Shown: piece by piece, positions 36,331 through 43,948 of the stretch | How positions within the stretch are numbered: the first letter of the stretch is position 1 | How the letters are laid out: each line of letters starts with the position of its first letter | Assembly: GCF_003334405.1 (NCBI RefSeq) | Contig: NZ_QOWM01000004.1 | Reading direction: 5' to 3' (one strand) | Length of the DNA: 64,000 bases | Origin: Escherichia coli | GTDB taxonomy: Bacteria > Pseudomonadota > Gammaproteobacteria > Enterobacterales > Enterobacteriaceae | The notes under the pieces: model-generated | The model's database searches: none | The model's input: the letters and a program-made list of their open reading frames with translations, nothing else | What the model was told of the DNA's origin: nothing | Program-made: the position numbers and the translations under genes

Positions 36331-36682
36331 CCTTTCTCCCACAAATATCTAGACTTAAGTAAAGCGTGGAGTGTACTGGATATACCCAATGCTGGTTGAG
36401 CATTTGTTGAAAAAATTTTCCCCCGTTTTGACTAAAATGCGCCAGGATTGATGGAATCATTAGTCTGGTGATTAGGAATAATCTGGATGAATGACAGGGA
36501 AAACATGCGTAATACTTACGCAGTTCTCTGAAAAAGTGATTTAAATTTAGATGGATAGCGGTGTATGGAAACGTTCTGTTACATGAAATGGCCCGTTAGA
36601 CATCACAAATCGCGAAGAGTTTCCCATTAATTTTTGATATATTTAAAACTTAGGACTTATTTGAATCACATTTGAGGTGGTT

Positions 36683-37198
36683 ATGAAAAAAATTGCATGT
36701 CTTTCAGCACTGGCCGCAGTTCTGGCTGTCACCGCAGGTACTTCCGTAGCTGCGACTTCTACTGTAACTGGCGGTTACGCACAGAGCGACGCTCAGGGCC
36801 AAATGAACAAAATGGGCGGTTTCAACCTGAAATACCGCTATGAAGAAGACAACAGCCCGCTGGGTGTGATCGGTTCTTTCACTTACACCGAGAAAAGCCG
36901 TACTGCAAGCTCTGGTGACTACAACAAAAACCAGTACTACGGCATCACTGCTGGTCCGGCTTACCGCATTAACGACTGGGCAAGCATCTACGGTGTAGTG
37001 GGTGTGGGTTATGGTAAATTCCAGACCACTGAATACCCGACCTACAAACACGACACCAGCGACTACGGTTTCTCCTACGGTGCGGGTCTGCAGTTCAACC
37101 CGATGGAAAACGTTGCTCTGGACTTCTCTTACGAGCAGAGCCGTATTCGTAGCGTTGACGTAGGCACCTGGATTGCCGGTGTTGGTTACCGCTTCTAA
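36683..37198 (+). CDS. ompX: Outer membrane protein X (8-stranded beta-barrel)
   Basis: MKKIACLSALAAVLAVTAGTSVA… ending …AGVGYRF. Confidence 0.95.
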   Translation: MKKIACLSALAAVLAVTAGTSVAATSTVTGGYAQSDAQGQMNKMGGFNLKYRYEEDNSPLGVIGSFTYTEKSRTASSGDYNKNQYYGITAGPAYRINDWASIYGVVGVGYGKFQTTEYPTYKHDTSDYGFSYGAGLQFNPMENVALDFSYEQSRIRSVDVGTWIAGVGYRF

Positions 37199-37218
37199 TC
37201 ACTTTGGTGATATAAAAA

Positions 37219-37248
37219 ATCCGCCTCTCGGGGCGGATTTTTGTTTTT
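37219..37248. terminator. Bidirectional intrinsic terminator shared by convergent ompX and opgE
   Basis: A-run, TCCGCC-TCTCGG-GGCGGA hairpin, T-run; opgE stop codon lies in the T-tract. Confidence 0.7.
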
Positions 37249-38830
37249 AAGGTTTCGGGTCGAAAATATCGGTTCCGAGATGGTTGTAATCCACCTTCTG
37301 TAACTGGAAGTTGGTGATGTATATCGGCCCGGCTTTCTTCTCAGATATAAACGGGTATTTGATGTTAATTTCCTTCGCTTTAATCCCCGTCCACTGGGAG
37401 AAAAAGCCTAAGAAGTCATTGGCTGAGCGGCGGGCTTTAATCACACGATGCGCTTTATCGTCGCTGGAAATGACCATAAAAGGCACCTGGAAATTTTGCT
37501 GATATTTATCATCATGGGCAAGGTATTGCACGTCTTTACCGCGCTCTTTAAAGGCCAGACCGTGGTCAGAAAAGTAAACCAGCGAGAAGCTGCTGCCGCT
37601 GTTGCGTAACTGATCGTACAGCTTGCGCAGTAAATCGTCCGTTTGCGTCATGGTATAGAGATAGCACGACGTTTCTTTCGATTGCACAAAGGTTTCGTAT
37701 TTTCCTTGTGTCCTGTCGCAGGCCTGCGGATGTGAGCCCATCAGATGTAGAACAATCAGCTGCGGTTGCGAGTGCTCTTGCGCCAGCACTTGAGCGGTCA
37801 TATCCAGTAACGCTTCGTCTTTGGTGTTTTTATCTGCTTCAAAATTACCTTCTTTCAGGAAGTACACTTCATCTGCTCGTTTGGCGATGCTGGCGATAGC
37901 GGTATCGTATTCGCCGATTTGACCCTGGTTGGAAAACCACCAGGTCTGGAAGCCCGCGCGATTTGCCAGGGTGACAAAGTTATCCTGAAACTGTGGTTTG
38001 CCATCGACAACGCGATTGAGCGTTAAGCCAAGCGATTTCTGCGTGGAGCCACTGGCGGCAATGTAGTCAGCAAATATCAAACCGTTAACGCTGCTGGCAA
38101 ACGGGGTATTGTCCCAGTGACCGCCAAAGGCACCGAGGGCATCGCGACGCGCGCTTTCACCGATCACCACCACATAGGTCTGATACTTCGGCTTAACGGC
38201 AGTGACCGTCCAGGTATCTTTCATTCCGGAAAGTTTTGCCATCCGTTCTTGCTCTTCAATCACCTCGTTATTATTGACGATGACATCCTTAGCAAAACGA
38301 AATACCGGATAGCCAGTATCTTTCAGTTTAAATACGCCACCCCAGGCCAGGTTTTGCACGGGAGCAACAAAAAATGTCGCCACACTGAATACCAGACACA
38401 GGCTGTCGAAGGTATTCCAGCGCGCTTTTTCATTCTCTTTTTTTCGCCTGATTGCTATTACGCCGAGCGCAAAAATAAATAAGCCGACCAGGTAGCTGTA
38501 CCACGGAAAAATCGTCAGGATTTCGGTCGACTCTTCCATATTGGTGGAGTGCAATGCCAGCAATGTATTGAAATTAGGCGCGCCGTAGGCCTGAGCAAAA
38601 GGGAAATAACAAGCCGCCACCAGCGAACTGACACCGACCAGAACTTTTTGTACGCGAGGCAATGTTCGCCATAGCAAAAGCAAAATAGCCGTAAACGCAG
38701 CGGTGTAGAGCAAACTGAAGGGGTAACCTAAGCCGAGGTTAATTAATAGCGACTGTAAAAAGTAGAACGCAGTCCACGGGCTAAATACCCGGCTACGGGT
38801 AACAAGCGATTCTTTGAGGGTTAAATTCAT
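37247..38830 (-). CDS. opgE: Phosphoethanolamine transferase OpgE (YbiP)
   Basis: ORF 527 aa; N-terminal TM helices plus sulfatase-like domain. Confidence 0.9.
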   Translation of the reverse strand: MNLTLKESLVTRSRVFSPWTAFYFLQSLLINLGLGYPFSLLYTAAFTAILLLLWRTLPRVQKVLVGVSSLVAACYFPFAQAYGAPNFNTLLALHSTNMEESTEILTIFPWYSYLVGLFIFALGVIAIRRKKENEKARWNTFDSLCLVFSVATFFVAPVQNLAWGGVFKLKDTGYPVFRFAKDVIVNNNEVIEEQERMAKLSGMKDTWTVTAVKPKYQTYVVVIGESARRDALGAFGGHWDNTPFASSVNGLIFADYIAASGSTQKSLGLTLNRVVDGKPQFQDNFVTLANRAGFQTWWFSNQGQIGEYDTAIASIAKRADEVYFLKEGNFEADKNTKDEALLDMTAQVLAQEHSQPQLIVLHLMGSHPQACDRTQGKYETFVQSKETSCYLYTMTQTDDLLRKLYDQLRNSGSSFSLVYFSDHGLAFKERGKDVQYLAHDDKYQQNFQVPFMVISSDDKAHRVIKARRSANDFLGFFSQWTGIKAKEINIKYPFISEKKAGPIYITNFQLQKVDYNHLGTDIFDPKP

Positions 38831-40998: not shown

Positions 40999-41012
40999 GG
41001 TCTGGCAAATAA

Positions 41013-41040
41013 AAAAGGCGGATTATGAGTCCGCCTTTTG
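41013..41040. terminator. Bidirectional intrinsic terminator between ybiR and ldtB (A6-GGCGGA-loop-TCCGCC-T4)
   Basis: Read in sequence. Confidence 0.65.
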
Positions 41041-43849: not shown

Positions 43850-43948
43850 CCTGATGCGCTACGCTTATCAGGCCTACGCAGTACCTGCAATATATTGAAT
43901 CTGCAGGACTTTGTAGGCCGGATAAGGCGTTAACGCCGCATCAGGCAT
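43850..43948. repeat. REP/BIME unit, third copy
   Basis: Near-identical to 1819..1916 and 18523..18621. Confidence 0.8.

Follow-up and report, generated by a model that had tools for sequence, protein, structure and literature searches.

The 48-nt gap between the convergent Escherichia coli genes ompX (plus strand) and opgE (minus strand) very probably contains a classical bidirectional intrinsic (Rho-independent) terminator, in which one G+C-rich hairpin flanked by an A-run and a T-run ends both mRNAs. We studied it within a 64,000-nt stretch of DNA from an E. coli K-12-like chromosome (hereafter, the window). The hairpin, the A-run, and the T-run described between the two genes in the initial annotation of the window were all found at the positions given there (Table 1), and the proposal that this one hairpin serves both genes agrees with published RNA 3′ ends on both strands, which lie 7–9 nt past the stem. 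The element is of a known and ordinary kind. A 901-nt stretch around the site, which carries the RefSeq labels ompX, opgE, and yliM, had a match in 5,423 of 5,426 complete E. coli genomes. Published positions were transferred between maps by adding 813,767 to the window coordinate to obtain the MG1655 coordinate, a conversion that we checked against rows of the published tables (the ompX start, 850450, corresponds to window position 36683).

Table 1 Positions of the ompX/opgE terminator, the mapped RNA ends, and other features of the window
Feature	Window position	Strand	Basis and remarks
ompX CDS, 171 aa	36683..37198, TAA 37196-37198	+	ORF list; RefSeq annotation of identical DNA
opgE (ybiP) CDS, 527-aa phosphoethanolamine transferase	37247..38830	-	ORF list; RefSeq
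opgE stop codon TAA (tta on + strand)	37247-37249	-	ORF list, annotation; 9 nt upstream (in opgE mRNA) of first core-stem base, 37237
Small hairpin TCAC-TTTG-GTGA directly after ompX stop	37199..37210	+	Fold; orthologues
A6 tract	37214..37219	+	Sequence; complement is U6 tail of opgE (- strand) terminator
Shared stem-loop: TCCGCC 37220-37225, loop 37226-37231, GGCGGA 37232-37237	37220..37237	both	Fold, conservation
T5-G-T5 run, U-tail of ompX terminator: T5 37238-42, G 37243, T5 37244-48	37238..37248	+	Sequence
ompX mRNA 3′ end, MG1655 851011-851013	37244..37246	+	Term-seq, two conditions; TRS Supplementary Data 2 and 3; 7-9 nt past stem
opgE mRNA 3′ end, MG1655 850979 (peak 850975-850984)	37212	-	TRS Supplementary Data 3, LB RNAtag-seq; 8 nt past stem
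Premature opgE 3′ end, MG1655 852543-852560	38776-38793	-	~40-55 nt past opgE start codon, within ORF
Second shared hairpin, A-tract / GGCGGA…TCCGCC / T-tract, ybiR (+) / ldtB (-)	41009-41040	both	3′ ends mapped at 854810 (+) and 854777 (-)
Molybdenum cofactor riboswitch ahead of moaA	3145-3289	+	Rfam
REP-derived families, ES036 three times and naRNA4	1839-1880, 18543-18585, 23821-23891, 43870-43912	-	Rfam; long gaps between convergent genes

Reading from ompX, the gap consists of the small hairpin that follows the stop codon, the tetranucleotide ATAT, the A6 tract, the shared stem-loop, and the T-run. In plus-strand RNA the A6 tract can lengthen the stem by A:U pairing, and a U·G pair closes the loop to 4 nt. 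On the opgE side, the stop codon is separated from the core stem by 9 nt and from the A:U-extended stem by 4 nt. The opgE stop had been described as embedded in the terminator tail. This is accurate for the DNA, in that the last two T of the T-run belong to the stop codon, but the mapped ompX RNAs end 1–3 nt before the stop triplet.

The stem-loop is stable as RNA on both strands, with core-stem free energies of −11.0 kcal/mol (plus) and −9.9 kcal/mol (minus). The 35-nt plus-strand RNA folded at −16.8 kcal/mol (z −3.9) and the 41-nt minus-strand RNA at −15.2 kcal/mol (z −5.1), and in neither case did any of 200 shuffled sequences fold as well. Each stem is followed immediately by a U-rich tail, UUUUUGUUUUU on the plus strand (37238-37248) and UUUUUUAUAU on the minus strand (complement of 37210-37219), with TransTermHP-style scores of −5.62 and −5.36, respectively, on a scale where U15 scores −7.15. 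Because stem energies and tail scores are almost equal on the two strands, the element is nearly symmetric. The combination of four A, a perfect 6-bp G+C-rich stem, and four T occurred at two loci in the 64-kb window, here and at 41013 (ybiR/ldtB), both between convergent genes, compared with 0 in 100 first-order Markov-simulated windows. A consensus terminator scan listed only the plus-strand site at ompX/opgE, a result that we rejected as biology and traced to the scan rule, which takes the A:U pairs into the stem and thereby uses up the minus-strand T-run. A gathering-threshold Rfam scan of the whole window placed no RNA family at the ompX/opgE terminator, and we therefore rejected a known small RNA or cis-regulatory family at this site.

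Mapping of 3′ ends on both strands, suggested in the initial annotation as the check on a shared terminator, has already been published, and the ends lie at the hairpin rather than elsewhere. For ompX, Adams et al. 2021 (eLife, PMC7815308, Supplementary file 1) reported a plus-strand Term-seq end at MG1655 851011, primary for ompX and seen in two growth conditions; it corresponds to window position 37244, 7 nt past the stem, and gives an RNA ending in GGCGGAUUUUUGU-3′. The TRS study (Nat Commun 2023, PMC10687069) placed plus-strand ompX ends at 851012 and 851013. For opgE, LB RNAtag-seq in the same TRS study identified a ‘Primary’ end (R = 0.990; adjusted p 0 / 7.8e-12 / 0; significant in 3/3 libraries), at which its authors drew a hairpin and a U6 tract; the opgE RNA terminates at 37212 in GGCGGAUUUUUUAU-3′. 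With both mapped ends at one hairpin, the ompX and opgE mRNAs share an end point and overlap by 33–35 nt, from 37212 to 37244-37246. These data support the reading of the element as a bidirectional intrinsic terminator. The minus-strand end was found in one dataset, TRS, and is not in the curated Term-seq list of Adams et al., probably because opgE is weakly expressed: TRS Supplementary Data 4 gives a signal of 0.16 for opgE versus 15.8–21.6 for ompX, a difference of ~100-fold. Neither gene has a row in the TERMITe supplements, and a full-text literature search pairing ompX with bidirectional terminators found no paper.

Steady-state 3′ ends formed by termination are indistinguishable from those formed by 3′-to-5′ trimming back to a stable hairpin, and a different origin of the opgE end must be weighed. 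The hairpin might be a one-way ompX terminator, with the end at 37212 arising by exonuclease trimming of read-through RNA or by head-on collision of polymerases at the hairpin. The ~100-fold excess of ompX signal would make collisions at the hairpin likely, and for hundreds of E. coli genes with overlapping convergent 3′ ends, termination by collision has been proposed. Trimming also has precedent, since published work shows that it can displace 3′ ends in vivo, and hairpins are described by Dar and Sorek as protecting 3′ ends generated elsewhere. Nevertheless, the minus strand has a canonical U6 tail right after a −9.9 kcal/mol stem and an end 8 nt past that stem, as expected for intrinsic termination, and no Rho-dependent region antisense to ompX is listed by Adams et al. 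The collision class (Ju et al. 2019) has been described as unlike intrinsic terminators, whereas canonical signals are present here on both strands. We therefore regard trimming or collision at a one-way terminator as improbable, and infer that the minus-strand end comes from intrinsic termination.

As a bidirectional terminator, the element would act on each strand in the usual manner. Polymerase leaving ompX would transcribe the A6 tract, the G+C-rich hairpin, and U5GU5, and be released 7–9 nt past the stem; polymerase leaving opgE would transcribe the complementary hairpin and then U6AU, and be released 8 nt past the stem. These release points would leave the two mRNAs with complementary 3′ ends of 33–35 nt. 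The main job of the element is probably to keep the very heavy transcription of ompX from running antisense into opgE, and the ~100-fold weaker transcription of opgE would be terminated by the same element. Its significance would thus lie in insulating a weakly expressed gene from a very strongly transcribed neighbor.

The plus-strand terminator is leaky, not tight. DirectRNA-seq coverage without bicyclomycin was 655 upstream of it versus 186 in the 800 nt downstream, and with bicyclomycin the corresponding values were 587 and 311 (Rho score 1.87). The higher downstream coverage under bicyclomycin indicates that Rho backs up the terminator and clears read-through transcripts antisense to opgE, and its contribution downstream on this strand was modest. 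Within opgE itself, published tables report a Rho-dependent region at MG1655 852560 (Rho score 6.19; Adams et al., PMC7815308) and an ‘Internal’ premature terminus at 852543 (TRS, PMC10687069). This premature end near the 5′ end of the gene suggests attenuation or poor, loose coupling of transcription and translation.

The element is conserved across Enterobacteriaceae. We scanned species-representative genomes for OmpX and obtained 80 Enterobacteriaceae loci, from which 74 distinct orthologous sequences were used for pairing counts. In most of the 80 loci opgE is convergent with and adjacent to ompX; a convergent gene lies downstream of ompX in nearly all of them and, where it is not opgE, is usually another one. 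The core stem TCCGCC/GGCGGA was paired in 100% of the 74 distinct sequences and the A5:T5 flanks in 99.7%, and at least five A upstream of the stem were kept in 73 of the 74. Together, this stem, at least five A upstream, and at least six T downstream show virtually no variation, in contrast to the loop and outer flanks, which are free to change. In three Kluyvera loci (L036, L042, and L047) an unrelated stem, GGGGTC/GACCCC, has taken the position of the usual one between retained A and T flanks. From these comparisons, a swapped stem between unchanged flanks is what would be expected of a structure selected for its function and not its sequence. A further Kluyvera locus (L046) has a degenerate version of this stem. 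In three of these Kluyvera loci (L036, L042, and L046), ompX and opgE are separated by ~1.1 kb of additional DNA that contains convergent ORFs; L047 is cut short.

Conservation of the A-tract bears less directly on whether the element is used in both directions. An upstream A-tract has been named as a hallmark of bidirectional intrinsic terminators, but A-tracts may also persist since they strengthen one-way terminators, as published, and this can be counted in favor of a hairpin that serves ompX alone. We dropped A-tract conservation as a criterion here: because almost every locus keeps a convergent neighbor, it cannot tell use in both directions from lengthening of the ompX stem. The sole locus without a convergent downstream gene (L058), where the long downstream ORFs (mechanical calls) run in the same direction as ompX, has a degraded A-run, which argues against the one-way reading.

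A second, smaller structure accompanies the terminator. Most orthologues have a small hairpin after the ompX stop codon, with stems that differ among them (TCGC/GCGA, TTCC/GGAA, ATCCC/GGGAT, and TTTCACTC/GAGTGAAA); 3/4 pairs are changed on both sides, and the loop is cUUCGg in most relatives. MAFFT left this hairpin out of structural register, and pair counts taken from the alignment understate its conservation. The terminator core lies 19–31 nt from the ompX stop in all but one of the loci with a detected terminator, the exception (L057) having 53 nt. The small hairpin may serve as a ribosome spacer between stop codon and terminator or as a stabilizer of the 3′ UTR.

On the opgE side, the spacing differs between genera. 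All Escherichia loci have 9 nt between the stem and the opgE stop, or 10 nt in the case of some E. coli strains, and this distance is maintained despite base changes within the spacer. In the other loci with adjacent opgE it is at least 17 nt, usually 20–31 nt, in all but one, and the close spacing is therefore confined to Escherichia among the relatives compared. The exception is Entomohabitans teleogrylli (L052, positions 3008–3060), where the opgE frame extends through the A-run and past one arm of the stem, with its stop codon in the loop (−11), encoding an OpgE C-terminus of …SQAKKIRP*; with only 25 nt between ompX and opgE, translation there would have to unwind the terminator. A longer OpgE C-terminus was considered as an explanation of the close spacing in Escherichia and rejected: the protein there ends in …DIFDPKP and has one residue less than the common (Citrobacter-type) …DIFETKSR, and what is missing is ~16 nt of spacer found in Salmonella and Citrobacter. 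The shorter protein end and the missing spacer point to a lineage-specific deletion, not an ancestral design. The 9-nt spacing is most readily accounted for as a side effect of a ~16-nt spacer deletion that would have occurred in the Escherichia ancestor, and not as a designed coupling device.

In toeprint assays the ribosome's leading edge falls at +15/16 from the first base of the P-site codon. A ribosome with the opgE UAA in its A site would accordingly have its leading edge at ~37237, the first base of the core stem; pairing of the A:U extension would be blocked, whereas the 6-bp core would stay free to form. The initial annotation held that termination of transcription and translation of opgE are physically coupled, and the geometry allows this: the 9-nt gap from stop to stem is less than the 10–15 nt of free mRNA estimated to be necessary for hairpin folding by Li et al. 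2016 (PMC4824070), who found full terminator efficiency only beyond ~27–30 nt from a stop codon and almost full repression of the lambda terminator tR2 at 5–6 bp. The same gap counts against the bidirectional terminator that we favor, in that termination of opgE transcripts should suffer when a ribosome follows the polymerase closely.

It can thus be asked whether the position of the opgE stop is a regulatory device. Under that proposal a ribosome at the UAA would occupy the A-rich spacer up to the edge of the stem; close coupling would hinder hairpin folding and lead to read-through antisense into ompX, and lagging translation to termination. In its favor are the closeness of the stop codon to the core stem (9 nt) and to the extended stem (4 nt), the tR2 precedent, the persistence of a 9–10 nt spacing in all Escherichia loci even though spacer bases have changed, and an opgE 3′ UTR of 35 nt, short against the published E. 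coli median of 48 nt. However, such short 3′ UTRs are common (of 83 primary termini sampled, 11 have 36 nt or less), and the close spacing is specific to Escherichia, with at least 17 nt elsewhere apart from the Entomohabitans stop in the loop. In 80 of 5,426 complete E. coli genomes (1.5%) an IS200 element (IS200C) separates the T-run from the opgE stop, indicating that insertions between hairpin and stop are tolerated. Furthermore, the minus-strand end is sharp (R = 0.99), there are no reports of a read-through product, and the weak expression of opgE together with its Rho-dependent premature termination close to the start of the gene suggests loose coupling. Given this balance, we consider it unlikely that the stop position regulates termination. 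The geometry is real, but it does not establish functional coupling, which is a reasonable geometric remark with published precedent, and some of the evidence at ompX/opgE speaks against selection for it.

A stronger version of this idea would hold that the ~16-nt deletion in Escherichia turned the opgE side into a translation-sensing terminator, such that tight translation of opgE suppresses termination and sends polymerase antisense into ompX. We find this very unlikely. If it were true, synthesis of OpgE, an enzyme that modifies periplasmic glucan, would be linked to the output of the outer-membrane protein OmpX.

Comparison with known systems places the element, as a bidirectional intrinsic terminator, in a familiar class. 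Canonical members such as ybiR/ldtB, and mog/satP in the same published tables, have the same G+C-rich hairpin, U-tails on both transcripts, and convergent stops, and their RNA ends map a few nucleotides past the stem on both strands, as at ompX/opgE. Nothing essential differs from this class; the 9-nt spacer on the opgE side is shorter than that at ybiR/ldtB and at the orthologous loci of other genera. Collision-type overlapping bidirectional terminators (Ju et al. 2019), among which ynaJ-uspE has been studied in a single-molecule assay, also involve a convergent pair, an overlap of a few tens of nucleotides around a hairpin, and sharp ends on both strands, but that class is described as showing weak one-way termination, in contrast to the canonical hairpin and U-tract carried on both strands by ompX/opgE. 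Ribosome-repressed terminators, namely the lambda tR2 series (Li et al. 2016, PMC4824070) and leader-peptide attenuators of the pyrBI type, share with opgE a stop codon within about one ribosome edge of the stem, a position from which a terminating ribosome could interfere with folding. Such interference was measured in those systems, whereas at ompX/opgE it would be predicted from geometry, in a weakly expressed gene with a sharp end and a spacing that would derive from a lineage-specific deletion.

The ompX/opgE pair provides a clean, experimentally supported case of one hairpin ending two convergent mRNAs, which matters little beyond correct annotation. The series of spacings, from 9–10 nt in Escherichia through at least 17 nt in other genera to the in-loop stop of Entomohabitans and the IS200 insertions in 1.5% of E. 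coli genomes, might be used as a set of natural tests of how near to an intrinsic terminator a stop codon can lie when transcription and translation are coupled, as they are in bacteria of this kind.

The ompX terminator attracts insertion sequences in both E. coli and Citrobacter. E. coli cS53a has an insertion sequence at this terminator (L086, positions 2560–3280); in Citrobacter sp. NCU1 (L010, one contig) the same IS200 end hairpin follows the T-run; and in a Citrobacter metagenome-assembled genome (L015, positions 3050–4510) a different element, encoding a 438-aa ORF, breaks the terminator loop.

Elsewhere in the window, the hairpin between ybiR and ldtB has the same architecture 4 kb away, with a longer spacer on each side. 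Two other convergent pairs overlap at their 3′ ends and have no intergenic hairpin: ybhQ/ybhR by 39 nt (11235-11273) and rlmF/ybiO by 4 nt (29488-29491, a shared stop region). Upstream of ompX, Adams et al. list an ‘orphan’ plus-strand 3′ end at MG1655 850293 (window 36506-36526), 157 nt before the ompX start; it directly follows a hairpin, TGCGTAATACTTACGCA, and precedes yliM, a tiny ORF (36565-36630).
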